A stretch of DNA of 64,000 nucleotides from an uncultured Gemmatimonadaceae bacterium. Lineage in GTDB: Bacteria > Gemmatimonadota > Gemmatimonadetes > Gemmatimonadales > Gemmatimonadaceae. Shown here one piece after another: positions 35,958 to 54,463 of this stretch (positions within the stretch are counted from its first letter, which is position 1; each line of letters begins with the position of its first letter). The DNA lies in assembly GCA_964637355.1 (NCBI GenBank), contig CAZWVG010000004.1, positions 1,517-65,516 of the forward strand, in the 5' to 3' direction. Made by a program: the position numbers and the translations under genes. The notes beneath the pieces are model-generated. The model searched no databases and was not told the origin of the DNA. It was given only the letters and a program-made list of their open reading frames with translations.

Positions 35958-36309
35958 TCAACCCGTGCGTATCAGGGTAGGCTGATCGGTGACGAGAGGC
36001 GGAGGCCAATCGCGCACACCCAGACAACGAAGCGAGGACTGCGCAACTGAATCCCAGCGCACGCTCCGCAAGCGTCCACATTCTCGAAGCGCTCAACGAC
36101 GCGTCCATCGATCGTTGGTACGAGAAGCACGTCGCGCTCGACGCTCAGGCTTCCGGCGAACGCCACTTCGGCGGGGGGGCGAGGCACTCGAGCGCATACT
36201 GCCTGGCATAGTGGCGCAGGACCGAGAACATCTCGACCGCAGCCCGCTCGTGCAACAACGAATGCGCGGAGTTCGCGAACAGCTGTGGAGGAAGCGTCCG
36301 CGATCGCAT
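35958..36309 (-). pseudogene. decayed Uma2-family paralogue (N-terminus missing, at least two frameshifts)
   Basis: My reverse-strand translation gives 'QLFANSAHSLLHERAAVEMFSVLRHYARQYALECL', then a frameshift at the G7 run (36173-36179). It continues 'PAEVAFAGSLSVERDVLLVPTIDGRVVERFENVD', then a second shift to 'GRLRSVRWDSV...'. This is colinear with 'ELFETPTPSWLHQRAVGDLIFQLHPYARSCSLECLMARAEVTFSPSRSVEPDVFVIPTINGRGAERFEDVGRLILAVEVDSP' of the intact Uma2 at 31742-32320. Confidence 0.7.
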
Positions 36310-37074
36310 CTATGTCGACCGTGCCAGACTTACCGCTTCGGTCACGAGCAACTCGTGCGCCTCTCGCCCCTCATGACCCCGAAACACGCGGCCACTTGCT
36401 GAACGCGGATAGAAGCTCGGATGGGACAGGGCCGCCCAAACGGACGACCCGCCTGAATGCAGCTGAACGTTAGAAAGTATCGATAACCCGCGCTCGTCGA
36501 TCTCCCGCAGTGTCGTGCGCGACGTCCACGGTTCGAGTCCGCGGCCGAGCGGCGCGACGAGCGAGGGTACCCAGGCGCCCAGCACGAGCACGAGGCGAGG
36601 CTGCTGGACTTCGAGCTGTACCCTTAGGAAGTCGCGGCACTCGGTGACAAACCGTGGGCTTAGTGAACCAGGGTATCGGCCGGTCGTTGCGGCGCCAAGA
36701 CGTAGTCCCATGTAGAAGTTGGTGAAGAAGCACGACTCGAGCGGAACTCCAGCCTCGCGGAGCATCTTGGTCAGCGATCGCCAGGTGGGTTGATTAGGCG
36801 ATTCCATTCCAAGCTCAAGTGACTTCTCGTAGCCGCGCTCAGAATGAAAGTCGTGACCGAGTACCATGACACCGCCGACGGGAAACTCTGCCAGGACGTC
36901 GGAGCGCGCTGGGTTCCAGAGGCCTAGGCCTCCCGGGAAGAATGAGGTGTACGCGATGGGCGCAGGGACTTGCAAGCATCCGTCGGGATACCCGGCAATC
37001 GCCAGGTGCGCTTGCCAAAGCCGACGCGCAGAATGCTCGGCGGCGTCGCCACTCATTGATCTGCGTTCATTCAC
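36310..37074 (-). CDS. uracil-DNA-glycosylase-superfamily protein (divergent, family unassigned)
   Basis: The UDG-fold motif order is 'GGVMVLGHDF' (motif A position), 'CFFTNFYMG', 'PRLVLVLGAWV', 'LSHPSFY' (HPS motif B). The first codon at 37074 is GTG (alternative ATG at 37056). It overlaps or abuts the HNH gene. Confidence 0.55.
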   Translation of the reverse strand: MNERRSMSGDAAEHSARRLWQAHLAIAGYPDGCLQVPAPIAYTSFFPGGLGLWNPARSDVLAEFPVGGVMVLGHDFHSERGYEKSLELGMESPNQPTWRSLTKMLREAGVPLESCFFTNFYMGLRLGAATTGRYPGSLSPRFVTECRDFLRVQLEVQQPRLVLVLGAWVPSLVAPLGRGLEPWTSRTTLREIDERGLSILSNVQLHSGGSSVWAALSHPSFYPRSASGRVFRGHEGREAHELLVTEAVSLARST

Positions 37075-38014
37075 GGGGCAGCACCAACTTCATCACGAGT
37101 TTCCGCGCCTCATCGATTGAAAGAGGCGGTGTCCGTCGGTGCAAAACGGCGTGACAGTTAGGACAGACCGGTCGCAAGTCGGCGATAGGGTCGGTACTCC
37201 GCTGTTCTGAGGTTGTGGCAAGCGGATTCAGATGATGAACATGTATGAGATCCCTCGCAATCGGACCGTATCGGGCTTCCAGGCTCACCTCGCACACGCA
37301 GCAAGTCGTACCAAAATGTGCGATGCACGCGCGTCGCGCGGCGGAGTTCCTCTCACGCGCAGACTGCACAACATCACGCACACTCCCTTCGTCGAAGGTG
37401 CTAACCACATTCGGTTCTAACTCGCTGAAGGACCCATCGCTCGCGGGCGCACTTCCTTCAAGAGCGACACGCACGTACGTCGGCTGCGGAATCGGCTTGC
37501 CGCTCAACTCGCCAAGCAGGCGGACCATGCCCGGGTGATGCGACTTGGGAGTCGCCCCGTTGATGCCCGTGGACGCCGCCACCTCCAGATGCTTAAGGTG
37601 CGCTTCCTCAATCGCTTCAAGGCTATCTGCAAGCCCAGTCGACGCCTCAATCCCAAAGACGGCATACGTTGAGTCCGGAGCGGACGCATACCCTCCCGGC
37701 GACTGTAGGTCTCCGCGAGCGTTTAGCGCGAGAGCCGACTTCCTCCCGAGCGTCGGCAAGTGAACCATCACGGCAATCAGCCCTCGCTGCAACGCGATGG
37801 CTTCCAGACGGCCGACGTTGAGTCGCAGGCGGGACGGTGACTTGGAAAGGCCCCACCTCGCCGGAGTAAGTTCATGCGCTATGCGAATCGAAGTCGCCAG
37901 TCGATCGACGGCGAGCGCACGTACGCCTTTGTCTGGCAACAGGCGCTCGAGATAGGAGAATAGTTTCTCTTCCTTCCATCTCTCGACGTAGGCTTCGGAG
38001 TAGTCGGCCGTCAT
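37067..38014 (-). CDS. HNH endonuclease with an uncharacterised ~220-aa N-terminal domain
   Basis: C-terminal 'CCVCE...DLIHVHHLNPL...VCPNCHAVLH' is an HNH/His-Me finger with a Cys4 zinc site. Confidence 0.8.
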   Translation of the reverse strand: MTADYSEAYVERWKEEKLFSYLERLLPDKGVRALAVDRLATSIRIAHELTPARWGLSKSPSRLRLNVGRLEAIALQRGLIAVMVHLPTLGRKSALALNARGDLQSPGGYASAPDSTYAVFGIEASTGLADSLEAIEEAHLKHLEVAASTGINGATPKSHHPGMVRLLGELSGKPIPQPTYVRVALEGSAPASDGSFSELEPNVVSTFDEGSVRDVVQSARERNSAARRACIAHFGTTCCVCEVSLEARYGPIARDLIHVHHLNPLATTSEQRSTDPIADLRPVCPNCHAVLHRRTPPLSIDEARKLVMKLVLPRE

Positions 38015-38125
38015 GCTTCGAACGTGGGTAATGGAGTTCGACGTCTGAACGGAGCAAGAACTTGGCGATGCGTCGGCGTGTCGACTGCTGTATGCGTGAT
38101 CATTTCCTTTCCGCGTGTAGGAAGT

Positions 38126-38833
38126 TCATTCAAAACCGGCAACAGGAAGAGCATTCAACTCTGCCCTCGCCTCGCGCCACGCGGGATAGTGCTCGCTCAA
38201 CAGCTCCACAAACCGCGCACTGTGCGTCGGTACCCTCAGGTGCACCATCTCGTGCACCACCACGTACTCCAGGAGATCCTTCGGCTTCTTCACCAGCTCG
38301 GTGTTGAGCCTGATGTGATGCGCAGCCGGGTTGCAGCTCCCCCACTTCGTCTTCATGCGCTGTAGGAAGTACCGCGACACACGAACCTTCAGGCGACTCT
38401 CCCACTTCTCGATCAGCGGTGGTACGGCGCGGTGCAGCAGCGCCTTGTGCCAGGCGTGCAGTACGGCAGCCCGTTTAGATCGATCGGCCTCCGGGCGGAC
38501 GGTAAGCGTGATGCGCCGGTGGTCGAGCGTCACGCTCGGCTGTTCGTCACGCTCGACGACCTTCAGGAGATATCGCTTTCCCCACACGTAGTGGCTCTCG
38601 CGCGTGACCAAGGCCCGCCGCGGCTCGCGCGCCTGCGCTCGGAGCTCCCTCCGGCGGGCGCGAATCCAGCCCAGCCGCGAGATCGCATACGCGCGCGCCA
38701 CTTCGAGACGCGTCGCGGTAGGCGCCACGAGAGTCACACGCCCTGTCGGCGGATGTACCGACAGGTGCACGTGTTTCACATCCTTCCGCGTCACCGCGAC
38801 CGAAATGTCGCCGAGACGGATTGTCTCGCTCAT
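38126..38833 (-). CDS. M48/DUF45 (YgjP-like, SprT-like) zinc metallopeptidase
   Basis: '[36 protein letters not shown]' contains HExxH. ATGA start/stop overlap with hsdR at 38830-38833. Confidence 0.85.
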
Positions 38834-41800
38834 TCGTATCCGCGTATCTGCTTCAGCAGCCCGAACAACGCTTTGGTCGCTGCACGATTGCGGTGGAGCA
38901 GGGGGTATAGCGCGTTGAGCACCTGAGCCTCGCGCGCCTGGTCGCCCTTCCAGCCGGCAGGGGCGCGCTCACGAAGCGCGCGGTCGATCTCTAGGGCGAG
39001 GTCGACGAGCTCGCTCTCCTCCACCGGCGGCGACTCGGCGACCTGAGTCGCGTCGCCGTCCCGCTGAGCAAGGATCTGCGGGAGATTGCGGAAGATGACC
39101 GTGGCTTCCAGACGGCCGTGCAATGCCGCCGGCACCTCGTCGTGCGCTCCCTTCGCGGCTAGTTGCCGCGCCAACCCTTCGGCCTTTCGAAGGAACGCCT
39201 CGTACGCCGCGGTATCCGCGCGGCTCTGTGCGATGAGGTCATCGAGCAGTGCGGACATCTGCTCGTAGAAGCGCGGATCGGTCAGCTGATCGCGAATGAT
39301 GGTCTTGCGGACGTTGTTGATGATCCCTTCCGCGATCGCGTTGCGAGACAGCTTTCCTGCTGCATTGAGCTTGCGAGCGATCGCGTCGTTGATCCCAGTC
39401 TCGACGATCAGCTCGACGAGCGAGAGCTCGCCGAGCGCGCCAATGTTCGTCGCCCGGTCTGCCTGGACGTACGTGTTGAGGAGGTGGCGCATGTCGGCCT
39501 CGTACGGCTTTATGTCCAGCTCCTCACCCGAGTGCTTCTTGATGGCCGAGCGGATCTCGCCGTGGAACTCGACCTCCTGAAGGAGCTGCGCCGCCTCGGC
39601 GTCGCTGAAGCCCGTCTCGGCCAGGTTCTGCGCGATCTCAGCATAGGCACGGACAAAGGTTGCAACGCCCTTGTAGTACGCGATCCTCAGCGCCTCGGTC
39701 TCGTTGAGCGCATTCGGATTGGAAGCGTCGCCGCAGAAGTAGTGGAGGAACTGCTCCACCTGCTGCGGTGGCGCCACCGGCGCGCACAGGTAGTGCAGCG
39801 CCTCGCGTGCTTCGTCGAGCTTCCGGCGTCCCTCGACGAGCCAGTCCTTCAGCTGGATGTTGTTCGGCCCTCCATTGCCCGGGTCGGTGTCGAGTTCGTC
39901 GGAGCTGTAGACGGCGATCGCTTCCTCCACTTCTCCGAACAGCTCCTTGTAGTCGACGATGTGCCCGTAATCCTTGTCGTCGCCGTCGAGCCGGTTGGTG
40001 CGACAGATGGCTTGGAACAGGTTGTGGTCGCGCAGCTCGTTGTCGAGATAGATGTACGTGCAGCTTGGCGCGTCGAAGCCAGTGAGGAGCTTGCTCACCA
40101 CGATGAGCAGCTTGAGGTTGGCCGGTTCGTGAATGAAGCGGCGCTTCGCTTCCTCCTCGTACTGCGTGGTCGTCTGACCATACTTCAGCACGTGCTGGGT
40201 ATAGGTGTCGAACTTGTAGCGCTCGTCGCTCTTGGACGACTCGCGGGAGATCGCGTTGTGGTTCGGCTCGTACGACGTGATGATCCCGCAGTACTGCCCG
40301 AAGGGCGTGTTCTGAAAGAGGCGGAAGTAGTGGCACGCGTCGTAAATCGACGGCGCCACGAGGATCGCCGTCCCGCGATCGTTGTTGAGTCGCGGCTTGA
40401 GGCTGAAGTCCTCAATGATGTCGGCGATGATGCGCTGCTTGCGCTCTCCCGCGCTCATCAGCTTCTCGAGCGTCGCCCACGTCTTGCGCACGAGCGCCTT
40501 CTGGAAGTTGTTTAGCCCCCGAGTCTTCTGTTCGAACCACGCATCGATGGCGGCTTGTGAGGTGAGCCGTTGGGGTACGTCGCGCGCCTCGTACTTGAGG
40601 TCGAGGATCACGCCGTCGGCCACCCCTTCATGGAACTTGTAGGTGTGGATGTAGGTGCCGAAGACGTCGCGCGTCATCTGCTTGTCCTTGCGCAGCAGAG
40701 GTGTCCCTGTGAAGCCGATGAAGATCGCCCCCTCCAGCCAGCGCTTCATCTGCGCGTTCATGTCGCCCCCCTGCGTGCGGTGGCATTCGTCCACGAAGAC
40801 GTAGAAGCGCCCCAATGTACGAGGCGGTTCTCCCTGCAGGTCCGAGACGTCGAACTTGTGGAGCAGCGCGCATAGCAGGCGGGGCGTGGCGCTCCCCAGC
40901 TTCTCGACGAAGTCGGCTCGGGAAGTGATCCTCGGCGACGGCGAGTCTTCCCCGATGACCCCCGCGTTCATCATCACACCCATGATCTGCTTGTCCAGCT
41001 CATCGCGATCGGTGATGATGAGCACGCGAGCCGCAGCGTCGTGTTCCAGAAGCCACTTGGCGAGGAGCACCATCAGGATGCTCTTTCCGCTCCCCTGGGT
41101 GTGCCAGATGACGCCCCCTTCTCGCTTGGCGACCCGCTCCTGTGCCGCCTTCACGGCGAAGAACTGGTGCGGGCGCGGGACCTTTTTGTGGCCGGCGTCG
41201 AACACCATGAAGTTCCGGACGAGGTCGAGCAGTCTCGCCTTGCTGCACAGCTGCGCCAGCGGTCGATCGAGCAGCGCTCCTTCCACGGGAGTCGCGGTGT
41301 TCGGCGCCTCGTCCTTCCATTGCACGAAGAACTGCTCTGGCGTGCCGGTTGTCCCGTAGCGCAGCCCCTGCGAGTCGCTCCCGGCCAGTACCAGTTGCAC
41401 GGTGCTGAAGAACTGCTTGTTGAAAATCTCTTCCTGGTTGGTGATCAGCTGCCGCACGCCGTCGGCCAGCTCCACGGAGCTGCGCTTGAGCTCCAGCACC
41501 GCGATGGCGAGCCCGTTGAGATACAGCACCACATCCGGCCGTCGCTGATACCCGCCCTTGAGCGTCACCTCTTCGGCGAGCGCGAAGTCGTTCTGCTCCG
41601 GGTGCTCCCAGTCGATCAGGTGCACCGTCTCATGTGCCTGCCCCGGTGCCACCTGCACGGGGACGCCGTAGCGCAGGAGCTGGTACGTGCGCAGGTTCGC
41701 CTGGTAGAGCGTGACGCCCGTGGAGTCAGCGGCTGTTTCGAGTTTGTGTAGCGCGCCCGAGATGTGGGCGGCGGAATACCCGCGCGCAGCGAGGTTCGCG

Positions 41801-41952
41801 CGCAGGATCCCCGCTTCGATGCCGCGGTTGTTCTCGCGTTTGCTCCAGTCGCCGAGGTAGCGGAAGCCGAGTGAGTCGGGGCGCGAATCGTTCGTGAAGA
41901 GCGCGACGACGCGGTCTTGTGTGCGACGTTCGGAGCGCGGCCTCTCACTCAT
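38830..41952 (-). CDS. hsdR: type I restriction enzyme R subunit
   Basis: N-terminal PD...ELK nuclease ('[22 protein letters not shown]'), SF2 motor '[10 protein letters not shown]' and '[10 protein letters not shown]', and a C-terminal helical domain. The ATG at 41952 overlaps the upstream TGA (ATGA). Confidence 0.95.
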
Positions 41953-43367
41953 CACAGAAGCTCCCAATGTCCGCCCTTTCGCGGGCCGACGAAGCGGAGC
42001 TTGCCGGCCTTGACTAGCTTCGCCGTGGCCCGTTCCACCGCGCTGAGCGACTTGCCCAATCTCGCGGCGACGGCCGCCAGCGTCAGTTCAGGGTCGGTCG
42101 CCAGTGCGGCGAGAATCTGTTCCGGCGTTTTCACCCGCCTGTTCACCGGCGTTTCTACCGGCGTTTCTACCGGCGTTTCTACCGGCGTTTCTACCGGCGC
42201 TATTCCGCCGCCCGCTTCCGCCTCCCTTGTACGCCTAACGACATTCGCGGCGTACGGGAAGGTGATCCACAGCCCGGATTCCTCGGTCAGGATCACGGGC
42301 GCCGGGAATCCTGCCTGTCGGCAGGCGGCGAACATGCGCTCGATCCCACGCCCCCACGCCTCGATCTCTCCGGCCCGGAAGAAAACGTTGGCGAGATCCG
42401 GATTGAACGGCTGGGAAGCGTGCTTCTTCTTCAGCTGCGCCACGGTCCATGCCGATGGCAACTGACCGGGGTTCCAGATCATGAGCTTGTCGGCGTACAC
42501 GCTGATCTGAACTGGTACGCCTGACGCGTAGTCCTTGTGGATGATTGCGTTCAGCACTGCTTCCCGAAGAGCCGCCTCGGGAACCGGCAAGGTCTCGACC
42601 CGCTGAATACCACGGTACGTGATCCCCGCCTTGAGATACTTGGTGAGCAGTAGGTCAATCGTCCCGCCCACCTGCGAGAATAGGTCGCCGTGGACCTCGT
42701 CGTGGTACAGCAGGTCGTCGTCAGTCCGGAAGTAGCCGATCTTCACGTACGCGCCGGTCACGAACTGCTCCGGCTCGGGGTGGAACGCCAGCACGGCCGC
42801 GCGCTTGAGATGCGTGCCCTCGCGCAGATGCAGCTTTTCGATCAGCCCGGTCGTCGTTTCCTTCAGGTCGGCGGCACTCATGCGCCGGCTCTGACGGGCC
42901 TTGGCTCGAAACGCCTCGATCGCAGCCTTGGACAGGGCGCGTACCGAGACACTCGGAACCGGAACACCGTCCCACGCACGCCCCTGCTTGCGCAGTAGGA
43001 ACTTGTCGAGTGCGGCCCCTTTGAGCTCCTGCTTCGTGCTCCCGCTGCGAAGATGGTACTCCCCCTTGTAGCTCACGGGGTAGGGATACGGCTCAACGCG
43101 GATCTCGATCAGGTCCTTCCCCGATGCGCGCACCAGGAGCACGTCGGCCATGATGCCGAGCACGTCGCGAATCTTGTTCGGTAGGTCGGCGAGTAGCTTC
43201 TTCGCGTCCGCCACCCCAACGGCTACTCCCTTGTCATTGCGCCCGATCACCAGCACGCCGCCCTCGGCGTTAGCGAACCCACAGAGCCAACGCAGGTACT
43301 CGTCGCGCCACGTCTCCTTCCATTCGACGTGTTGGGATTCCATGCGAGAGCGGCGCCGCTCAGGCAT
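41952..43367 (-). CDS. AlbA_2 (Schlafen-like) / HATPase_c_4 / wHTH protein
   Basis: '[11 protein letters not shown]...[17 protein letters not shown]' is the AlbA_2 N-terminus, 'LNAIIHKDY' the ATPase-like middle, and there is a C-terminal winged helix. Start at 43367 or 43343. Confidence 0.75.
42145..42200. repeat. 12-bp tandem repeat (ACCGGCGTTTCT x4 plus a partial unit) encoding (VETP)n
   Basis: Units at 42145, 42157, 42169 and 42181, then 8 nt of a fifth. It is in frame in the linker before the C-terminal wHTH of the AlbA_2 protein. Confidence 0.95.
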
Positions 43368-45324
43368 CGGCCACTTCTGCAAGCACCTCAGACTCTACAT
43401 ATCGCTTGAATGACGCGTCGTCGGTAAAGCAGCGAAAGCCTGCTTGGCTCGCAAGCGTCACGGTGGCGAGTTCCTCATTGAGGAGCACGACCACAGGCTG
43501 ACTGAGCTCTTCCTGCAGGCCGTTAGGCCAGGCAAGATCGAGGACCGCCAACTGTTCTCCGCTGTTGGAATCGGCCAACTCGAACGACATCACGCCGCGC
43601 GGTAGCCCGCACGATTCCACCCACTCATTCATCTCCTCGAGCGCTTCCTCCTCCTCTTCGCTGCTGATACCGCCGCGGACGGCGAGTGGTGTCGGAAGTG
43701 TCGCGGACGCGCCGGCGAGCCATCGTACATCACCGTGCAACAGTTCTTCCATGCGGCGATTGAGTTCGGCTGCCAACAGCACCTTGCGGGCCTCGAGGAA
43801 GTCCCGGAACCGCTCGATCTTCCAGAGCGCGGGATCATCCGGTATCCACTGCGAGGCGAGCGCACCCTTGTGCGCCGCCTCGACCTTCGGGAAGTAGTCT
43901 TCCGGGAGGCGATCGGTGATGCGCAGGTTGGTGTCCTTGGTCAGGAAGCAGAAGTTCGCGAGTGCGTTCACCTCTGCCCGCTTGTAGTTGCGCTTGTAGA
44001 GTTGAGCCTTCGGGAAGATGTGGTGTACCTCCAACCGACTCATCCTCCCCAGCAGACTCGCCTTGAGCGGGAGGCCAGTGCCCCAGTCACGCGATTCACC
44101 CATTCGCGTTAGCAGATAGAGCACCGGATAGAAGCGCGCGCCAAGGCTCCAGCCGGTAAAGTGGCCCGCTTCTGCGCGGAGGCCGCCGTGCCAGAGTCGT
44201 AGTTGTTCGAGCAGCTTGTCGAGGCCACCGTCTGCGCCCTCGAGCGCGGCAAGGTCCTGATCGATGAATGATTCCGTCGAGCCCGAGAAGCGCCCCCACA
44301 TCGCTGCCTGCACATACCAGAAGAGCAACTTGTCGCGCTCGTGCTCATTCATCGGGCCAAGCCGATTCGCCAGTCGCTGGTCGAGATAGCGCACCATCAC
44401 CGGCACGCCAAATCGTCCGAAGAAAACCTGGTCGTGGTCGAGCCCGAGCCGGCCGGCGATCAGATTCAGGCTGGTCTCGATGTGCCGCGTCGTGCGCGCG
44501 AGCGCCTCCTGTACCTCAGCCGCAGACTTCTCGTGGAGGTACAGAAACTTGGCCTCGCCGGTGAGCACAGTGTTCACCGACCGAAGCAACCAGTCGAGCG
44601 AGAAGTGGTAGTCGCTCTGCGCCCATGACTTGAGGGTGGTCTTCATCGTATCACGCCCCTCTGGCCAGTCGGCGCAGATCTTCGCGAGCGCAAGATCTCC
44701 CTTGGAGAGTTTGGTTCCCCCGCTGTTCACGCGGTTGAAGATGTCGACGACTACGTCGAGCGACTTGTCAGTCCCAGTGACCTCCTCGATGTGCAGATCC
44801 ACGTCGATGATTCCGAGCAGCCGGCTCAAGCGAGCGACGTAGTCGCCGACCTTGGCGGAGAGCTGCGGCTGCGCCGTTAGGCGCGTGACGAACAGTCCGA
44901 GTCCCGACGTACCTTGCGCCATCAGCTCCGTCACGTCGATCCAGCGCGGATCGTCCTTCATCTTCGCCGGCTGGTAGAACTCGAAGCGTTCGTCTTCCAG
45001 GTGGAAGCGAAGTCCGGTAAACGCCTTGGCGTTGCCGTCGAAGAAGCGCGGGGGCTTGCCGCGTACGACGCCGTAGAGCGACGTCATGCGCTGCTGTCCA
45101 TCGAGCAACAGCTTTACGATGCCGGCAGCCAACGGGCCGTCGCCGCGATGCGTGGCCGTCAAGGACTCGGTTGCCCACACGAGCAGTCCACCGACGGGAT
45201 GCCGGCGATAGAGCGAGTCGAAGAGTCCGCGAACCTGGTCGCGATTCCAGACGTAGCCACGCTGGAACTCGGGCAGTGCCATGTGGCCGCTGTCGATGTG
45301 GTCGAGGATGGTGGAGATCTTCAT
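43360..45324 (-). CDS. DUF262 (ParB-like NTPase) + His-Me/DUF1524-like nuclease, GmrSD/BrxU-type, with an extra ~150-aa C-terminal domain
   Basis: 'LPEFQRGYVWNRDQV', 'LLDGQQRMTSL' and later 'LEVHHIFPKAQLY...NALANFCFLTKDTN'. Confidence 0.8.
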   Translation of the reverse strand: MKISTILDHIDSGHMALPEFQRGYVWNRDQVRGLFDSLYRRHPVGGLLVWATESLTATHRGDGPLAAGIVKLLLDGQQRMTSLYGVVRGKPPRFFDGNAKAFTGLRFHLEDERFEFYQPAKMKDDPRWIDVTELMAQGTSGLGLFVTRLTAQPQLSAKVGDYVARLSRLLGIIDVDLHIEEVTGTDKSLDVVVDIFNRVNSGGTKLSKGDLALAKICADWPEGRDTMKTTLKSWAQSDYHFSLDWLLRSVNTVLTGEAKFLYLHEKSAAEVQEALARTTRHIETSLNLIAGRLGLDHDQVFFGRFGVPVMVRYLDQRLANRLGPMNEHERDKLLFWYVQAAMWGRFSGSTESFIDQDLAALEGADGGLDKLLEQLRLWHGGLRAEAGHFTGWSLGARFYPVLYLLTRMGESRDWGTGLPLKASLLGRMSRLEVHHIFPKAQLYKRNYKRAEVNALANFCFLTKDTNLRITDRLPEDYFPKVEAAHKGALASQWIPDDPALWKIERFRDFLEARKVLLAAELNRRMEELLHGDVRWLAGASATLPTPLAVRGGISSEEEEEALEEMNEWVESCGLPRGVMSFELADSNSGEQLAVLDLAWPNGLQEELSQPVVVLLNEELATVTLASQAGFRCFTDDASFKRYVESEVLAEVADA

Positions 45325-45334
45325 GGATGTCGAA

Positions 45335-46063
45335 TCATGTCGCGGTAACAGGAACCCAGATCCAACCTTCGCCCTGCGTCACCTCGTCCGGTGGTGGAAC
45401 AAGGAGCTCGCGCCGAGTATCGAAGAGGTGCGCGATCACGGCGCAGATGCGAGCGTCATCCTTATCATCGTGCCCCAGCGAGGGTTGGCCGCCGAGGACT
45501 GCGGTGACGGCCGGTGTGCTACGGCTGGCGGCGGGATACGTCTCGATCGCGCGAAACCCATCACCATCGGTCCAAATGCCGCAGCTCTCGACGTGTGGTG
45601 CGAACTTGGCCAGGACGTGCATCCCTTTCGTTGCCTGGCTTCCGATCATGTCCTTGACCGCCGACAACGGACTCTTGCCGCGCTCGAAGAGGTAGCGTTC
45701 GGTGTAGCGGAACAAGTAGCGATTCAGCCCCGACGTTTTGTGGGGCTCGACGTAGCCCTGCCGGGAGATCAGGCGCACGAACTCGATCGGGAAGCCGAGC
45801 GGTGTGTCGATCGCCATGGTGATGCGCGGCGGCACTGCGGGATAGGGCGCGCGGCACTTGGTGAAGAGTGCACGGAGCCAGTCGCTGATGCTGCGTGACG
45901 AGGCGATGCACTCACGCAGGTTGCCGCGCCAAGGTGTTCCGACGATGGCCAGACTCTCGTCGAGAATGACGATCGCATCGCGGCTCGCGCCGTTCTTGTC
46001 GCAATTCCAGCCGCCGACGTCCCAGCCGATGAAGAACGACGGTCGCTCGATCTCGTTCTTCAT
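45335..46063 (-). CDS. DUF429-like predicted RNase-H-fold nuclease
   Basis: 'FFIGWDVGGWNC' (first strand with Asp), 'AIETYPAAS', 'HDDKDDARICAVIAHLF'. The family call is from memory. ATGA overlap with the hsdS stop. Confidence 0.5.
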   Translation of the reverse strand: MKNEIERPSFFIGWDVGGWNCDKNGASRDAIVILDESLAIVGTPWRGNLRECIASSRSISDWLRALFTKCRAPYPAVPPRITMAIDTPLGFPIEFVRLISRQGYVEPHKTSGLNRYLFRYTERYLFERGKSPLSAVKDMIGSQATKGMHVLAKFAPHVESCGIWTDGDGFRAIETYPAASRSTPAVTAVLGGQPSLGHDDKDDARICAVIAHLFDTRRELLVPPPDEVTQGEGWIWVPVTAT

Positions 46064-47313
46064 ACCAGCCGAGTCTTCCCGGTGAGCAGCTCCTGCATCA
46101 TCCCCTGCTTGAGCCCGCGAGTCTTGTCGCGGCGGGCTTCGAGGGCAGCGATCTCCGCATCCATGTCCGTGAGCACCTCCGCGATCGCAACCTGCTCGGT
46201 CACCGACGGCAAACGCATCTCGACACTGGCCACGTGCGCCCGAGTCGTCGCGTACACCTTCGTCCCGGCGGCGAGTCGCCGGAGTTGAGAGGCAAACGCC
46301 GGGCAGAACTGAAGGAAGCCCTTGAAGCCATCGGCCAGCACCGACTTGTCGAATCGCGCGGCAATCGTGTGCAGTCCCGCCACGACCTCGGCGGAGCCCA
46401 CACCCTTCATCTCCACTGACTTGCTCACCCCGGCGACGTCCTCCGACGCATCCGCGATCACCAGGTCACCGTCCTGCAGACGCGCGAGGCGCGCGGCCTT
46501 CGCTTCCGGAAGGCATGGCAGCAAGCCCGGCGTCATGAAAGAGTCGCCGGCGGCGTGCACGTCACCGTAGTGGACGTCTCTGACTCTTCCCTCGGGGAGA
46601 AGCTCGGCGCGCGAGTTGACTCCATTCCGCAGAAACGTGACGTGGTCCCCCAACCGCCTCACCTCCCACTCCCCACCAAACCCCGGCAGCCGCGTCTTCC
46701 CGGTGAGCAGTTGCTGCATGGCCGCCTGCTTGAGATCGCGTTTCTTGGCGTTGAGCCGCTCCAGCCCGTCCAGCAGCGCATCCATATCGCTCAAGGCGGA
46801 GGCGATGGCGCGTTGCTCGGCGAAGGTCGGCGGAAGTGGGACCTGTATCGAACGCACCTGACTGAAGTTCAGTCCTTGTCGATTTCCTCCAGCTTGGAAG
46901 CTGTCAACTTGCCGCTGACCGCCGGATGAGAGAAGAAATTGGCAGAGGTACTGCGGATCCAAAGACTGAGCTGCTGTGCGGACGACGCACACGTGCTGAT
47001 TGACGTTGCCACCTTCGAGTCGGGCGTCGGCGACCGCGCAGCGACCGATCGAAGCACCGGTGATGTTTAGGAGGACGTCGCCACGTTGCAGCTCGGTGTC
47101 AGGGAAGGTCGCGTGCGTCGAATCGTCGATGAACGCAATGTCATCGAGCAACAAGACTCCCCACCCAACATTCTGACTTCGCACAAAAGGGCGACCCGCA
47201 TTCCTGTATACGCGTTGCCCGCCGCTCGGCGTAACCCCGCTACCAACCTTCACCGCGCGTTCGCCAATCGACTCGACTGTCCATTCTGCCGGAAGGATGC
47301 CGATGGCCGTCAT
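46060..47313 (-). CDS. hsdS: type I R-M specificity subunit with two target-recognition domains
   Basis: Central 'FAEQRAIASALSDMDALLDGLERLNAKKRDLKQAAMQQLLTGKTRLPGF' and C-terminal 'TEQVAIAEVLTDMDAEIAALEARRDKTRGLKQGMMQELLTGKTRL' conserved repeats. A 17-nt identical DNA repeat occurs at 46073 and 46694. ATG at 47313 (alternative GTG at 47337). Confidence 0.9.
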   Translation of the reverse strand: MTAIGILPAEWTVESIGERAVKVGSGVTPSGGQRVYRNAGRPFVRSQNVGWGVLLLDDIAFIDDSTHATFPDTELQRGDVLLNITGASIGRCAVADARLEGGNVNQHVCVVRTAAQSLDPQYLCQFLLSSGGQRQVDSFQAGGNRQGLNFSQVRSIQVPLPPTFAEQRAIASALSDMDALLDGLERLNAKKRDLKQAAMQQLLTGKTRLPGFGGEWEVRRLGDHVTFLRNGVNSRAELLPEGRVRDVHYGDVHAAGDSFMTPGLLPCLPEAKAARLARLQDGDLVIADASEDVAGVSKSVEMKGVGSAEVVAGLHTIAARFDKSVLADGFKGFLQFCPAFASQLRRLAAGTKVYATTRAHVASVEMRLPSVTEQVAIAEVLTDMDAEIAALEARRDKTRGLKQGMMQELLTGKTRLV

Positions 47314-47327
47314 CTTGTATCCCCGCT

Positions 47328-49748
47328 TCACCTCCACGCTGATCTCATCGACTTGAGGTGATCGTCAACCCGCACTGAATGCCCCGCCACGTTGTCGACG
47401 AGCGTTTGCAGCGGAGTCACGTATCGCTCCGCCAGCTCGCGAAGTCGACTGGTTAGTCTCTGAGACACACGATCCAGCTCCCCATTCACCTCAGCCGACA
47501 ACCGCGCCATCCACTTCTCGTCCACAACCAGCGTCTTCACCTCCCCCTCGGTCAGTGTCGGATACTTGTCATACGACAACCCGTCGAGCGCCGCCTCCAG
47601 CTCCCTCACCGCACGCTTGAGTGAGGCCTCACTCTCGGAGAGTTCCAGCCAGCGCTTCAGCACCGCCGCTTCGTCCTTCGCCTCCTTGTCGCCCTTGATC
47701 TCCTTCAACCGCGCGTTGACCTCCGCCTTGGCCACCTTGTCGAGCGCGCCGAAGTATCCCTCCTCGCCACCGTGCTCCTCCTCCATCTCGGCGAGTTCCG
47801 AGGTGAGTCCCTCCAGCGCCACCTGCATCGTCTCGACCGCCTCCTGCTCCTTCGCGAAGCACTGCGCGACGAGCAACGGCTTGGGAACCAGGTCGCACGC
47901 CCACCCCTTGTCCTTCCGCTTCCCCTTCTTGTCGGTCTCTACGATGCGCGCGGTGCGCGCCACCCAGCCGTCGGCGGCGATGAGGTAGCAGTCGTCCTGC
48001 ATCGTCTCGCCCCAGAAGTCCATCAGGTGCTGGTAGACGTCGTAGGAATCGAGCAGCGGTGCCCCCTTGAAGGCATCGAGCAGCCGCTCGGCGATGGACT
48101 CGATGAGCGTCCTGGGATGGCCCCCCTTGTCGAACGCCGTGAGCTGCAACGTGGCGTCGTGGCGCCAGCGGTCGAAGCGCTCGCGCGACAGCCGGTTGAA
48201 GGCGGCGAACTCCTCGTGCTCGAGGATGGCCTTCTTCACCTCGCCGATCGGGAGCCTGAGCTGCGAGTACCCCGGGCGTCCGGCCGACTCGAACAGCACC
48301 GCGCGCACGGACGGCAGCACTTCCCAGTAGGTGCCGAGTGCGTCAAGGTCGCGATTGGGGATCCCTCCGCGCAGGTGGCCCTCGATGTCCTGCAGGTCCT
48401 CCGGCTCGCTCGTGTCGACGTAGCGCGGGAGGTTGAGGTTGAAGTCGTTCTTCGCATCGGCGATCTCGTCCAGCGGCACCAGGCGCGCGTAGCGCGGAAC
48501 GTCTACCTGCTTGCGGAAAGTGTCGACGATGCGATGGATGTCCTGCTCGCGCAGCCGGTTCTTGTTCCCGTCCTTGATGAACCCCTTGCTCGCGTCAATC
48601 ATGAAAACGCCCTTGCGTGCCGCTGCGTTCTCCTTGTCGAGCACCAGAATGCAGGCGGGGATCCCCGTGCCGTAGAACAAGTTCGCCGGGAGCCCGATGA
48701 TTCCCTTGAGTATCCCGGAGCGCACCAGCTTCTCGCGGATCGCTGCCTCGGCGTTGCCGCGGAAGAGCACGCCGTGTGGAAGGATGCAGGCTCCTTTCCC
48801 TGCGCTCCTGAGGGAGCGGATGATGTGCAGCAGGAAGGCATAGTCTCCCTGCTTGGCCGGCGGCACTCCCCAGGCAAAGCGTTGCCATGGGTCGTTGTCA
48901 GGCGTTAGGCCAACGCTCCACGTCTTGACCGAGAACGGCGGATTGGCGACGACGTAGTCGTAGGTGCGCAGCTGCTCGCCGTCCTTGAACTTGGGCGCGG
49001 CAAGCGTGTTCCCCTGCTGGATGTTGGCCGTGGGGAAGTCGTGCAGGATCATGTTCATGCGCGCGAGACCGGCGGTGGTCACGTCCATCTCCTGCCCTTC
49101 CAGCGTGATGTGCTTTCCCGCCTGCGCGGCGACCTTGAGCAGCAGCGAGCCCGAGCCGCACGTCGGGTCGTACGCGGTCGTCGATGCCTTGGTGTTCTGC
49201 GCCGAGATACCGATCACCTGGGCGATCACGCGGCTCACCTCGGCCGGCGTGTAGAACTGCCCTTTGCTCTTGCCACTCTCGGTGGCGAAGTGGCGCATCA
49301 GATATTCGTAGGCGTCGCCGAGAATGTCGTCGTGGTCGGCGCGGTTCTGCGAGAAGTCGAGCTCCGGCTTCTCGAAGATCGCGATCAGATCCGACAGGCG
49401 ATCCACCATCGCCTTCCCTTCGCCCAGCTTGTTGGGATCGTTGAAGTCGGGAAAGTCGCTGCGCGCCAGCCGCTCGTTCGCCTCGATGAGGGGCTGGATG
49501 ACCTGCGTGTTGATCCTGTCGCCGATGTCGCTCCTTCCCTTGAGCGCCACCATGTCCGCGAAGCTCGAGCCCTTCGGGATGATGACGGGCGGCGCGAAGT
49601 CTCTGCTGTTCCCGTACTTGTCGCTGATGTACTTGATGAACAGCATGAACAGGACGTAGTCCTTGTACTGACTTGCATCCATGCCGCCGCGCAGCGCGTC
49701 ACACGACGCCCAGATGGAGGAGTAGAGATCGGACTTCTTTAGTGCCAT
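47328..49748 (-). CDS. hsdM: type I R-M N6-adenine DNA methyltransferase subunit, long form with a ~300-aa coiled-coil C-terminal extension
   Basis: HsdM N-domain 'LYSSIWASCDALRGGMDASQYKDYVLFMLFIKYISDKY', AdoMet 'AYDPTCGSGSLL', catalytic 'VVANPPFS'. Confidence 0.95.
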   Translation of the reverse strand: MALKKSDLYSSIWASCDALRGGMDASQYKDYVLFMLFIKYISDKYGNSRDFAPPVIIPKGSSFADMVALKGRSDIGDRINTQVIQPLIEANERLARSDFPDFNDPNKLGEGKAMVDRLSDLIAIFEKPELDFSQNRADHDDILGDAYEYLMRHFATESGKSKGQFYTPAEVSRVIAQVIGISAQNTKASTTAYDPTCGSGSLLLKVAAQAGKHITLEGQEMDVTTAGLARMNMILHDFPTANIQQGNTLAAPKFKDGEQLRTYDYVVANPPFSVKTWSVGLTPDNDPWQRFAWGVPPAKQGDYAFLLHIIRSLRSAGKGACILPHGVLFRGNAEAAIREKLVRSGILKGIIGLPANLFYGTGIPACILVLDKENAAARKGVFMIDASKGFIKDGNKNRLREQDIHRIVDTFRKQVDVPRYARLVPLDEIADAKNDFNLNLPRYVDTSEPEDLQDIEGHLRGGIPNRDLDALGTYWEVLPSVRAVLFESAGRPGYSQLRLPIGEVKKAILEHEEFAAFNRLSRERFDRWRHDATLQLTAFDKGGHPRTLIESIAERLLDAFKGAPLLDSYDVYQHLMDFWGETMQDDCYLIAADGWVARTARIVETDKKGKRKDKGWACDLVPKPLLVAQCFAKEQEAVETMQVALEGLTSELAEMEEEHGGEEGYFGALDKVAKAEVNARLKEIKGDKEAKDEAAVLKRWLELSESEASLKRAVRELEAALDGLSYDKYPTLTEGEVKTLVVDEKWMARLSAEVNGELDRVSQRLTSRLRELAERYVTPLQTLVDNVAGHSVRVDDHLKSMRSAWR

Positions 49749-49796
49749 TCGGTGAGTTGGGCTAAGTATTGCGTGCAGCGGGCGCCCGAATCGGGG

Positions 49797-50648
49797 TCAG
49801 GCGCTGGCTTGCGCGGCTTGCAGTTCGTTGAGTGTGCGGCCGTCCTTTGCTTTCCACGCGTCGCGTCCATTTGCACTGCGGCCGAGAATCACACCGGCGG
49901 CCGAACTTGGCGAGGGGAACACATAGTTCTGCGTGAAGACGTACCTGTCTTTTCCCGCCTTGAGTACGCCGTTCTCGGCGAGTGCAGCTCGCAGTTCGAC
50001 TATGTACGGATAACAGGACTTGACCTCGTCCAATGCGGCTTCGCTCCCTGTGAGGACGACGAAGCCCTCGGCGGTCTCGAATCCCCGTGCTGTCACGCCG
50101 CGTCCGCTCATCGAGAGTTCCGGCGCAGCGGGCGCCTGTAGCGCTACAGTCGAGAAGACGCCGAGTCCAAGGACCGGGAAGCACATCAGCGCTTCTTCGA
50201 GAAAGCCCTCAGCCTCCGCAGCGTCCGATTCGGATAGCGAGGGAAGGGCGGGGCGATTGCCGTTGTCGAGCGTGCAGCGCTTGGCTTTGTCAGCCAGGTC
50301 GACCAAGCGGGACTCGAGGAACTGAACGTGCGCCTTGTTGAGGTTCTCGTCCTTGCTGGTGAAGGCGAAGCAGGTCGTCCAGAAGTCCTTGTTCGCCGCG
50401 TGCTGCTCGAGCCGAGGGCGAATCGGATCGCCTTCTCCGACGTAGACGCGCGGTAGGCCGGACTCTTCGGGCGGGCCGACGAGGACGTAGACTCCAGTTC
50501 GCGTCATCTCCCGTCGGTGCCTCCCCTCCGGGAAGAGAGGGCGCGGTATCAGCAGCCCGGCGCCGCTCCAATTGGACTTCTCGATGATGCGGATCCCCTC
50601 GGGATCGCCGGCGGGGACGAAGATCTTGATGGTGTAGGGTCGCGGCAT
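49797..50648 (-). CDS. GIY-YIG nuclease-like protein with a DUF4357-type C-terminal domain
   Basis: 'TGVYVLVG...VYVGEGDPIRPRLEQH...' is GIY-YIG-like. C-terminal 'AEGFVVLTGSEA...' resembles DUF4357. It is the first gene of the minus-strand chain. Confidence 0.6.
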   Translation of the reverse strand: MPRPYTIKIFVPAGDPEGIRIIEKSNWSGAGLLIPRPLFPEGRHRREMTRTGVYVLVGPPEESGLPRVYVGEGDPIRPRLEQHAANKDFWTTCFAFTSKDENLNKAHVQFLESRLVDLADKAKRCTLDNGNRPALPSLSESDAAEAEGFLEEALMCFPVLGLGVFSTVALQAPAAPELSMSGRGVTARGFETAEGFVVLTGSEAALDEVKSCYPYIVELRAALAENGVLKAGKDRYVFTQNYVFPSPSSAAGVILGRSANGRDAWKAKDGRTLNELQAAQASA

Positions 50649-50982
50649 GACGATCACTCACCGCCGAAATGACAGCGGTCATCTGGGCATCGCCCGTGTG
50701 AGGCGCTCCGAGCTTGGCGCGGTTCGCGCTCGCATCGCGGCGTTGCTGTCACTTCTCCCCCACCCCCCTGTCTCCGCATCGCGCGCTCCGGTGACCAGCT
50801 CTCGGACGTCCGACCTGACCGAGCCACGATAACCACGGGTACCGACAGCGGCCAGAACCGTGGTTCCGGGGAATCGACCGAACTCCTCGGCACAAGCACC
50901 ACGCCTCTCCAGCGAACACGCTGCCGGAAGCGTGGCCGGTCGCGACGGCAAGGGAAACATCTGAGCTGGCGCAGAAACTATA

Positions 50983-51053
50983 CAGTACTTGCCATAGGAC
51001 AGTAAGTAGCACATAGTACTGTCAGTACTGCCATTAACACCTCACAGGACTGC
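50983..51053 (+). promoter_or_regulatory. array of four operator-like decamers in the AT-rich spacer upstream of 51057
   Basis: CAGTACTTGCC (50983), TAGTACTGTC (51014), CAGTACTGCC (51023), CAGGACTGCC (51044). Three contain the palindrome AGTACT. Spacings are 31, 9 and 21 bp. Confidence 0.5.
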
Positions 51054-51056
51054 CCA

Positions 51057-51632
51057 ATGGGAAAGATCTCAATCGACGTCGATCAGGAGGTGTTCGAGCA
51101 TCTGCAGGGACGCGCCACGCCGTTTGTCGACAGTCCCAACGATGTACTGCGCCGCCTTCTTCTGACGCCGCTACCCGAAGTTCCGGAGGCGTCGAGGACT
51201 CGACAGCGAGCTACCTCAGCTGAGCGACGTGCGGCGAGACACGGTGGCCCGGTGCCGGCCGACGCCTTCGTCTCGCGAGTGATTCATCAGGAGCTCGGCG
51301 AGGGCTTCAAACGCCGCCCGCCGTTCCGGATGATGTTCGAATCGAAAGACGCGCTGGCGTATTTCCAGAACTTCAACAAGGAGACGGATCATCTCTGGTA
51401 TCGGGTGACCCAGAATCCTTGGCGCGAACTCACGTCAGCGCGGAAGAAGGCATGGCTCTGCCTCAGCAACCCCGCCGAGGGTTACTGCTACGTGATCCCC
51501 GTTTCCGAAATCCAGGCGCAGGTGCAGCGCGCGCGCTGGAGCCGTCCGTATCTGGAGGTCAACATCGATCCGGCCACCTCACGCTGGACGGAACTCGATT
51601 GGCGGCTGGATCAGTATCTCGTTCGTGCCTAA
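51057..51632 (+). CDS. hypothetical protein with a SeqA-N/Arc-like ribbon-helix-helix N-terminus
   Basis: 'ISIDVDQEVFEHLQGRATPFVDSPNDVLRRLL' parallels the SeqA N-terminal pattern I.vD.e.y.yi....ges.sdiLRR.L. The C-terminal 110 aa are unassigned. Confidence 0.45.
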   Translation: MGKISIDVDQEVFEHLQGRATPFVDSPNDVLRRLLLTPLPEVPEASRTRQRATSAERRAARHGGPVPADAFVSRVIHQELGEGFKRRPPFRMMFESKDALAYFQNFNKETDHLWYRVTQNPWRELTSARKKAWLCLSNPAEGYCYVIPVSEIQAQVQRARWSRPYLEVNIDPATSRWTELDWRLDQYLVRA

Positions 51633-51717
51633 CAATAGTCTGCGAGAATTTCGGCGTCGTTGAGCGCTGACTGACTCGAGTGGCTCGCTGAGACGTCGAT
51701 CAACTTTCGACCAACTA

Positions 51718-53214: not shown

Positions 53215-53380
53215 CGCGGCAGGAGAGGGGCGCAGCGCGCGAAGTGGGCTCGGGAATGCTCCGCCATATTGGCAATTGAGCGTGTGGTTCCCCAAGCGCC
53301 GTGTTGCATCGAACGGCCAACAATCGTCCTCCCTTGCATGCGCGTCGATTCCTGTGACGCCACGGCACCCGGAGGACTCA

Positions 53381-54007
53381 ATGAAGGTGTGTCCATACTG
53401 CGCCGAAGACATCCAAGATGGCGCAATCATCTGCAAGCACTGCCGCTCTTCGCTGAAGGACTCGAATCAACGCAGCGGTGTAGCGCTGAGCTCGGCGATC
53501 TCGCCCAAAGCACCAGTTACGGTGAGGACACCGCTGGTTCTGGCCCTCGCACTGGCCGCGGTCGTCGCACTCGTTGTGATCATCGCGCGCCCCGCGCCGG
53601 ACGCTTCGCCGCCGCCCGCTGCGGTGATGACGGCGACTCCGCCGCGGCCTCCGAAAGTGTGGAATCTCGCCTCCATGTCGGACTTCGACGTAAGCGCCGG
53701 CAAGATCCTGAGTTTGGAGTGGGATGTCCCCGTCGACCAGCCGAACTGCCGCCTCACTGGACGCGTCGAGGTTACCGAGGGTGGCAGCAAAGACGTGCAG
53801 GTCTTCCTCACGTCGCGCGACGAGTTCACCAACCTCGAGAATGGGCACAACGCCAAGTCGTACCTGGCCACTGACAGAACCACGGTCGCGACGTTGGACG
53901 TGCGGGTGAATGAGCCGGGAGCGAAGGTGCTCGCGATCAGCAATGCCTTTTCGCTGCTCACGTCCAAGCACGTACAGATGCGGGATGTGAAGGCGGTCTG
54001 TACCTAA
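53381..54007 (+). CDS. zinc-ribbon / single-TM / extracytoplasmic beta-sandwich protein
   Basis: GGAGGA lies 4 nt upstream of the ATG at 53381. 'CPYCAEDIQDGAIICKHC' is followed by the TM helix 'LVLALALAAVVALVVII'. Confidence 0.6.
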   Translation: MKVCPYCAEDIQDGAIICKHCRSSLKDSNQRSGVALSSAISPKAPVTVRTPLVLALALAAVVALVVIIARPAPDASPPPAAVMTATPPRPPKVWNLASMSDFDVSAGKILSLEWDVPVDQPNCRLTGRVEVTEGGSKDVQVFLTSRDEFTNLENGHNAKSYLATDRTTVATLDVRVNEPGAKVLAISNAFSLLTSKHVQMRDVKAVCT

Positions 54008-54463
54008 CGCGGGGAACGCGCACCGTCGAGACGGCGCGCGCTCGCGTGCGATACTACCCTTGAGCGTCCTCAGGAGCTCATCCCGCACTCTGACCGCGGC
54101 GACATTCTCCGGCCTTCAGCAGGTGGCTCGGCTGCAAGGCGGAAAGCGGAGAATCGCCTTGACGGTTTAATTCAACCGCAGAAGCCGGCAACTCGTCGGA
54201 CGCGTCGATGCGACGCGAGTTTATCCGATTGCGATAAGATCGCAAAACTCGATCAAACTCACCGGCTCCCGATTCAGTCGGTTGCGGTTCGGAGCATCAC
54301 CTACCCGCCGCGCCCGGCGTGCTCAGCGCGCGCGGAGGAAGACTCGATGCCGGCTTGTGGCGCGAGCGGCAACGTCGTGGCGAGCGGATCGCACCTTCTT
54401 TTGCGAGTTCGTGTATCTCCGGGTTGCGTCCGTCAGTCCGACCAGCCCTCGCCGCCCCCGCCC

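Follow-up and report, generated by a model that had tools for sequence, protein, structure and literature searches.

The hsdS–hsdR interval of a type I restriction–modification (R-M) operon from an uncultured Gemmatimonadaceae bacterium contains a gene for a 242-amino-acid (aa) protein, followed by a gene for a 654-aa DUF262 protein. The operon lies in a 64,000-nt stretch of DNA (assembly GCA_964637355.1, contig CAZWVG010000004.1, positions 1,517 to 65,516), referred to here as the window. A sequence-only reading of this DNA had proposed that the two genes form a tight DUF429 + GmrSD pair, possibly a new two-component modification-dependent nuclease. Comparison with related loci indicates that they are very probably not a dedicated pair, each being a separate passenger gene that moves widely. 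Their co-occurrence fails from both sides, and the pair is therefore not a conserved unit. The locus is a single type I R-M operon, hsdM-hsdS-...-hsdR-ygjP, with three embedded genes in the hsdS–hsdR interval. The explanation that we favor, and consider likely on balance, is that these three genes are independent of one another and that the 242-aa protein is a candidate effector of the PDC-S44 family.

Co-occurrence and genomic settings of the embedded genes

Homologs of the 242-aa protein were collected by scanning one genome per GTDB species, which gave 204 stretches encoding a relative, and 80 loci were kept. Neighboring genes were examined by tblastn with the window proteins, by calling of open reading frames (ORFs) with start trimming, and by a Pfam scan of 65 immediate downstream neighbors. 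By tblastn, the 242-aa homolog was directly followed by a DUF262 gene in 4 of the 80 genome loci (L001, L004, L033 and L046), and a GmrSD_N domain was present in 4 of the 65 neighbors scanned with Pfam.

The same question was asked from the DUF262 side using a metagenome scan, in which 418 stretches encoded a relative of the 654-aa protein, and the best 80 (74–86% identity) were taken with up to 6 kb of flank. No homolog of the 242-aa protein was detected at E ≤ 1e-5 in these 80 loci, 59 of which had at least 750 nt of upstream sequence. At E ≤ 10, the end of the 242-aa protein was matched over 20 residues at a contig edge with 85 nt upstream (L129), 10 nt before the DUF262 gene (E = 0.026), so that the two genes co-occur in at most 1 of the 80 loci. 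Co-occurrence had been named in the sequence-only reading as a check on the pair, and the absence of linkage to DUF262 as a result that would speak against it; the counts from both sides gave no such linkage.

The metagenome loci also show where the DUF262 gene resides by itself. It is directly abutted by hsdS in 36 of 74 loci, and hsdR starts directly after it in 34 of 67. This hsdS-DUF262-hsdR arrangement, which lacks the 242-aa gene, identifies the DUF262 gene as a frequent stand-alone embedded gene in the hsdS–hsdR slot. Adjacency of the two genes is expected whenever both are present, because the 242-aa gene is always hsdS-proximal.

The 242-aa gene is linked to hsdS, with conserved translational coupling. 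Among 78 genome loci, the two genes abut in 26 and overlap by 4 nt in 22 of these, and the abutment extends over Pseudomonadota, Verrucomicrobiota, Acidobacteriota, Desulfobacterota and a Methanosarcina. In a further 8 of the 78 a type I R-M system was nearby without hsdS abutment, and 44 of the 78 had no type I R-M system within 10 kb. The gene following the 242-aa gene is variable. Apart from the four DUF262 cases, it was hsdR itself in L022, L029, L063 and L079, where the 242-aa gene is the sole embedded gene, a gene for a ~308-aa NucS_C-like protein in ten loci, a Schlafen/AlbA_2 gene in L002, L008 and L016, and a Fic-like or a DUF6088/AbiEi gene in three loci each. Neighbors in the non-R-M loci included defence and mobile genes (Mokosh MkoA/MkoC, AbiEi, Lamassu LmuB, Nhi, BrxH, PDC-S02, integrases and transposases), mixed with housekeeping-like genes such as oxidoreductases and an MCP.

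In a tree of the 242-aa family, 17 of the 19 members of the window's clade were R-M-embedded, and other R-M-embedded clades were interspersed with non-embedded ones. Identities of the 242-aa protein and of HsdR were loosely correlated (Spearman 0.45, p = 0.017, n = 28). Swaps of the backbone were seen in L019, L046 and L071, with 75–78% identity for HsdR versus 52–58% for the 242-aa protein. The 242-aa gene is thus shuffled relative to the R-M backbone.

One of the loci with both genes is archaeal. In a metagenome-assembled genome of a Methanosarcina sp. (L033, NZ_DAOOUJ010000041.1) the order hsdM-hsdS-242aa-DUF262-hsdR-ygjP is the same as in the window, with 53% identity for the 242-aa protein and 71% for the DUF262 protein, the frame of which appears split (145 + 504 aa). 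This archaeal cassette is evidence for inter-domain transfer of the cassette as a whole.

The commonest non-R-M neighbor of the 242-aa family was the ~308-aa NucS_C-like family, with a PD-(D/E)xK C-terminus, which was present in 12 of the 80 loci. Its gene lies directly downstream of the 242-aa homolog in L005, L006, L014, L018, L023, L025, L035, L038, L042 and L071, and directly upstream, in flipped order, in L066 and L076. The family was searched with the protein encoded at L038:10756-11682, to which the members are 60–76% identical. Three of the 12 loci had no type I R-M system nearby, and no member was found in the window or in the 80 DUF262 loci. In this subset of loci, the ~308-aa protein may be a true partner of the 242-aa protein.

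Family and fold of the 242-aa protein

The 242-aa protein matched the PDC-S44 profile hidden Markov model (HMM) of PADLOC-DB at 5e-96 (319 bits), with residues 7–240 aligned to positions 4–249 of the 257 in the profile, and the embedding context of this family is present in the window, where the gene lies between hsdS and hsdR. The statement in the sequence-only reading that this DUF429-like protein has no assigned defence role is therefore out of date. The PDC families stem from a "guilt-by-embedding" analysis of genes lying within BREX, DISARM or type I R-M systems, and most of the genes found inside type I R-M systems serve in defence (Payne et al., bioRxiv 10.1101/2024.01.29.577857). The terms "PDC-S44" and "DUF429" were not found as text in the supplements of that preprint. 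PDC-S44 is a predicted single-gene candidate, and we found no published phenotype, mechanism or structure for it; the likeness of the window's protein to it consists of the full-length HMM match and the embedding in a type I R-M operon.

A Pfam scan of the 242-aa protein returned no family at threshold. Assignment to the DUF429 family held as a distant relationship: DUF429 was weakly matched by 25 of 34 homologs (best 4.1e-5), with no other family recurring, but the match of the protein itself falls below the Pfam gathering score. A few homologs are labeled "DUF429 domain-containing protein" or "predicted nuclease with RNAse H fold" by their source databases (NCBI, JGI). The 242-aa ORF is a real gene with 1562 homologs at E ≤ 1e-3, the top 120 of which are 61–93% identical to it and almost all 236–257 aa in length. 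A family assignment beyond "distant DUF429-like" is not supported.

The motifs GWDVGGW, ETYPA and HDDKDD, which had been noted from the sequence, are all present, and they hit the invariant columns D15, E174, D200 and D203 in an alignment of the 34 homologs. The invariant columns include D15, D29, D86, D138, E174, D200 and D203 together with C21, C70, C161 and C207, and C52 and C180 are nearly invariant. Four invariant cysteines are unusual for an RNase-H-fold nuclease, and, judging from their conservation, may form a metal site or a redox-sensitive feature.

The structure of the 242-aa protein was predicted by AlphaFold2 with the homolog alignment (predicted local distance difference test (pLDDT) 87.3, predicted template modeling score (pTM) 0.87). 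The model contains three strands, helices, a fourth strand (80–85), a less confident helical insert, strands within 157–174, and a long last helix (199–216). D15 ends strand 1, D86 follows strand 4, E174 ends the last strand (strand 5), and D200 and D203 form a DxxD on the last helix. This acidic arrangement matches that of E. coli RuvC, formed by D7, E66, D138 and D141.

A search of PDB sequences with a 34-sequence profile of the family returned nothing at E ≤ 10. Weak Foldseek matches of the model in the PDB included PIWI, ExoI, EndoV, a terminase nuclease and transposases, and those in BFVD, apart from the best one, included RuvC-like resolvases, DDE transposases and RNases H. In the comparison with RNase H and RuvC folds that had been suggested earlier, the model thus shows an RNase-H-like topology, and almost all of the weak matches are RNase-H-like, though none is convincing. 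From the order of elements, the invariant carboxylates, and the weak DUF429 and Foldseek matches, an RNase-H-like fold class appears probable for the modeled protein.

Majorek et al. (PMC3985635) assigned DUF429 to the RuvC/terminase/transposase clade within the RNase-H-like superfamily, predicted it to have nuclease activity, and called its genomic context conserved and "unlikely to be mobile". The 242-aa protein resembles DUF429 (PF04250; COG2410/COG4328/COG4923; clade D) in its beta-beta-beta-alpha-beta-alpha...beta-alpha topology, and in acidic residues that follow strands 1 and 4 or lie on the C-terminal helix. It differs in its sub-threshold score, and in that its subfamily is scattered across phyla in R-M operons and defence islands. 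A tblastn search with the 242-aa protein gave no match in phage records, and the sole match in a plasmid collection, at 29% identity, was in a 4.9-Mb Aeromonas record.

The 654-aa protein, the operon and its surroundings

The 654-aa ORF is likewise a real gene, with more than 7000 homologs at E ≤ 1e-10. The proposed likeness of its product to GmrSD and BrxU was borne out by its GmrSD_N domain, by a match to PADLOC HEC-05, and by BrxU (7P9K) being its closest solved relative by sequence, although the putative His-Me finger gave only a weak GmrSD_C match (Table 1; 14.2 bits, gathering score 23). HEC-05 is reported to correspond to BrxU. Hma and type I R-M systems often carry embedded GmrSD-like genes, which may deal with modified DNA that escapes restriction by the host system (bioRxiv 10.1101/2024.01.29.577857). 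The DGQQR and HH...N...N motifs noted earlier are both present, and the positions along the protein are DGQQR 75, VHHIFP 433, N453, N466, SSEEEEE 554 and LDLAWP 595. The protein shares with BrxU, GmrSD and SspE (DUF262 + DUF1524) the DGQQR motif, a downstream (H/D/E)H-x-x-P motif (HHIFP, versus DHIYP in BrxU), and the embedding in a larger defence system. It differs in its distance from BrxU, with matches confined to N-terminal segments, in its sub-threshold GmrSD_C region, and in an extra C-terminal domain.

The extra acidic C-terminal domain that had been described is present, but comprises ~100 aa after a linker rather than ~150 aa. The top 120 homologs of the 654-aa protein (at least 79% identity) are almost all 648–656 aa long (range 648–663), and since they are near-full-length, they include this domain. 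A search with the domain alone gave 491 representatives (E ≤ 1e-3), in most of which it ends a DUF262 protein. It was also found beside a Ser/Thr kinase domain (P0369), and between DUF262 and SLFN_AlbA_2 domains in an 813-aa fusion protein (P0336). No Pfam family was found for it. Its AlphaFold2 model (pLDDT 93.7) has the order alpha-beta-beta-beta-alpha-beta-alpha, and its Foldseek matches were weak (best E 0.08) and mostly to restriction-endonuclease-like PD-(D/E)xK proteins, including the DrdV nuclease domain, Exo5, Can2, TnsA, VRR_NUC and 3hrl. Conserved residues include an aspartate (in DLAWP) and a glutamate (in LLNE), with no lysine in the usual position. The model suggests that the domain may have a PD-(D/E)xK-like fold.

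Two sets of matches to the C-terminal domain were set aside. The top match (P0241, 4677 aa, with 22 stretches) is an SprB-repeat/T9SS protein and was taken as a repeat or compositional artefact. Many of the apparently stand-alone proteins of 105–180 aa were rejected as contig-edge fragments, because several begin with the linker of the DUF262 protein (ELLHG...).

A Schlafen-like gene follows the DUF262 gene in L004 and in 4 of the 80 metagenome loci. Together with the P0336 fusion and the overlap of the two genes in the window, this recurrence hints at an occasional functional link between the DUF262 and Schlafen-like embedded genes.

The features of the operon are listed in Table 1. The joint presence of hsdM, hsdS and hsdR defines a type I R-M system, and the hsdM and hsdR products pass the curated cut-offs of NCBIfam. 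The coordinates of the two ORFs, their junction with hsdS and the gap between them were confirmed on the minus strand. The TGA stop codon of hsdS overlaps the ATG of the 242-aa ORF (ATGA; junction ...CTG GTA TGA AG...), and the TGA stop of the 242-aa ORF is followed by 10 nt (TTCGACATCC) and the ATG of the 654-aa ORF. The 476-aa ORF, with a TTG start at 43382, overlaps the stop of the DUF262 gene by 23 nt. Both genes of the proposed pair are indeed within the hsdS–hsdR interval, but this 476-aa SLFN_AlbA_2 gene separates the DUF262 gene from hsdR. The whole row of genes (38126-50657) is co-oriented on the minus strand, and a pattern scan of that strand found no terminator-like sites over 36–51.2 kb. 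The identical operon is recorded on 14 contigs.

Table 1. Features of the type I R-M operon in the window, in order of transcription
Feature	Coordinates	Strand	Basis
286-aa DUF4357 protein, PADLOC candidate PDC-S14	49797..50657	-	Pfam DUF4357 3.2e-21; PDC-S14 1.4e-100
hsdM, type I R-M methyltransferase subunit, 806 aa	47328..49748	-	NCBIfam TIGR00497 263 bits (cut-off 242.75); HsdM_N + N6_Mtase on identical protein
hsdS, specificity subunit, 425 aa	46060..47337	-	Methylase_S on identical protein; NF007278 3.1e-18, below cut-off; junction sequence
242-aa PDC-S44 / distant DUF429-like candidate RuvC-like nuclease, RNase-H-like fold (predicted), embedded gene 1	45335..46063	-	PDC-S44 5e-96; DUF429 E = 0.035; AlphaFold2 pLDDT 87.3
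654-aa GmrSD/BrxU-like type IV restriction enzyme candidate, embedded gene 2	43360..45324	-	GmrSD_N 3.6e-25; HEC-05 3.4e-47; 7P9K 5.8e-10
DUF262 (GmrSD_N) domain of 654-aa protein, residues 3-216, DGQQR at 75-79	44677..45318	-	Pfam match and motif position
Divergent GmrSD_C/DUF1524-like His-Me finger region of 654-aa protein, residues 423-518	43771..44058	-	PF07510 E = 0.042; HHIFP 434-438, N453, N466
Autonomous ~100-aa C-terminal domain of 654-aa protein, residues ~556-654	43363..43659	-	491 representatives; AlphaFold2 pLDDT 93.7; outside Pfam
476-aa SLFN_AlbA_2 + HATPase_c_4 + winged helix-turn-helix protein, embedded gene 3	41952..43382	-	Pfam 4.4e-13, 1.6e-20, 4.9e-07
hsdR, restriction subunit, 1045 aa	38830..41967	-	TIGR00348 471 bits (cut-off 284.55)
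YgjP-like metallopeptidase gene	38126..38833	-	Pfam YgjP-like 7.1e-54; after hsdR in most related loci

The PDC-S14 / DUF4357 gene directly upstream of hsdM is a further candidate attached to the same operon. The region from ~36000 to 54300 is probably a horizontally acquired defence island. Its G+C content is 0.62–0.63 (36–54 kb), versus 0.67–0.70 for most of the remaining window, and genes matching outer membrane protein beta-barrels are present on both sides of the stretch on an identical contig (L161). No tRNA genes were found in the window, and hence none at the island borders.

Two further groups of genes lie in this region. Directly after ygjP, on the minus strand (36310-38014), are two genes that overlap by 8 nt. 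The product of one (315 aa) weakly matches HNH (E = 4e-4), and that of the other (254 aa) weakly matches the UDG superfamily (E = 3.8e-5). Neither protein has a PADLOC match, and the two may be a small defence-type pair at the island edge. Next to the operon, on the plus strand (51057-53214), are two divergently oriented genes for proteins of 191 aa and 498 aa without a Pfam family, the latter with a faint Cas4-like (PD-(D/E)xK) PADLOC match (E = 0.0023).

Proposed roles and alternative explanations

In the explanation that we favor, expression of the 242-aa protein would be tied to HsdS through the conserved ATGA stop/start overlap, and the protein would be a metal-dependent nuclease working as a single-gene module. 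Its most likely role would be that of a second-line defence effector riding with the type I system, which possibly restrains it, as EcoprrI does PrrC. The 654-aa protein would be a self-sufficient BrxU/GmrSD-like type IV enzyme, composed of a DUF262 NTPase domain, a His-Me finger and a restriction-endonuclease-like C-terminal domain, and would act alone against modified DNA escaping the type I enzyme. The third embedded gene encodes a Schlafen/AlbA_2-HATPase_c_4-winged helix-turn-helix protein. For the 242-aa protein, we infer nuclease activity, a defence role and any restraint by the R-M complex; this specific mechanism, with the protein as nuclease and backup effector, is possible rather than probable.

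EcoprrI silences PrrC until Stp inactivates EcoprrI (bioRxiv 10.1101/2024.01.29.577857). PrrC occupies the same slot as the 242-aa gene (hsdM-hsdS-X-hsdR) and is co-transcribed with its host system, and it serves as a model for a latent R-M-guarded nuclease. The shared feature is genomic position only: there is no homology, and the 242-aa protein has no PrrC or ABC ATPase match in PADLOC or Pfam. PrrC is almost exclusively R-M-embedded, whereas the 242-aa family is R-M-linked in under half of its loci. By extension of this analogy, PDC-S44 might represent a new class of single-protein RuvC-like defence nuclease, produced in parallel with HsdS, silenced by the type I methyltransferase/restriction complex and freed when a phage anti-restriction protein disables the complex. 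It would then be a PrrC-type guard built on an RNase-H fold, not on an ABC-ATPase anticodon nuclease, and in a subset of loci it might work with the ~308-aa NucS_C-like neighbor. We regard this extension as rather unlikely.

Several observations weigh against the independence of the embedded genes or against an effector role of the 242-aa protein. Adjacency of the 242-aa and DUF262 genes recurs in three separate clades of the 242-aa tree (the window with L001 and L004; L033; L046), and the two proteins may occasionally cooperate. The co-occurrence figures are raw counts, taken without a baseline frequency for each embedded gene across the R-M family, and hence give no measure of enrichment or depletion. 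The DUF429 (PF04250) match of the 242-aa protein reaches 14.3 bits (E = 0.035), against a gathering score of 23. The best Foldseek match of its model in the PDB has E = 0.07, and there is no significant solved relative; the best match in BFVD, a terminase, has E = 8.7e-4 with a TM-score of just 0.28. The invariant C21, C70, C161 and C207 could point to a different chemistry. A full-text search of the literature found PDC-S44 as a survey mention only, and no functional test, and the PrrC-like guard relationship is pure analogy.

Were the 242-aa and DUF262/His-Me proteins strictly dependent on each other as the two components of a modification-dependent nuclease, in which the smaller protein serves as a sensor or in processing, the 10-nt gap with no obvious terminator would be readily explained, as would the arrangement kept in L001, L004 and the 14 contigs with the identical operon. 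Adjacency in L033 and L046, from other clades of the 242-aa tree, and the contig edge in L129, where the final 20 residues of a 242-aa homolog may precede DUF262, also fit such a pair. We nevertheless consider it very unlikely, given a co-occurrence of 4/80 from the 242-aa side and 0/80, or at most 1/80, from the DUF262 side. Moreover, the DUF262 protein keeps its length of 648–654 aa when alone between hsdS and hsdR, the related BrxU works as a single protein, and the hsdS-proximal position of the 242-aa gene would produce the adjacency anyway.

The genomic settings bear on a different proposal, in which the 242-aa protein is an accessory subunit of the type I R-M family, for example a nuclease acting on DNA ends or on stalled translocation intermediates, or a factor regulating how HsdS and HsdM assemble. 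Such a role would agree with the ATGA coupling to hsdS in 22 loci, with the R-M embedding of nearly all of the window's clade, and with the moderate correlation of 242-aa and HsdR identities. It is made unlikely by the 44 of 78 loci without a type I R-M system within 10 kb, by the operons of the same R-M family, most of which lack the 242-aa gene, as all 80 DUF262 loci attest, and by the exchange of the gene between backbones. It appears similarly improbable that the protein has no part in defence, being instead a selfish or mobility-related RNase-H-fold enzyme (resolvase- or transposase-like) in permissive operon slots, or a housekeeping DUF429 enzyme carried by chance. The RNase-H-like clade that includes DUF429 also holds transposases, terminases and resolvases (PMC3985635), the weak structural matches include DDE transposases and RuvC-like resolvases, and some of the non-R-M neighbors are housekeeping-like. 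However, the gene shares the orientation of its operon and is translationally coupled there in every case, and conservation across phyla is very high (61–93% identity in the top 120). The searches of phage records and of the plasmid collection, with no match and the single 29%-identity match, respectively, also speak against this reading, and no inverted repeats or element boundaries were evident, though no search aimed at them was made. In addition, mobility-associated and non-defence families were filtered out before PDC naming (Payne et al., bioRxiv 10.1101/2024.01.29.577857).

Type I R-M operons with defence genes embedded in them have been catalogued before, as have GmrSD-like genes in such positions and the PDC-S44 family. 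Since the embedding is documented and both proteins belong to catalogued families, the locus is an ordinary one overall. There is no conserved unit that corresponds to the proposed two-component nuclease. The residual interest lies in PDC-S44, a structural orphan with ~1560 homologs, which is unusually conserved across distant phyla, including an archaeon, and is hsdS-coupled in many lineages. Should the 242-aa protein turn out to be a nuclease that acts in defence under R-M control, it would be a new type of effector among the few R-M-guarded backup systems.

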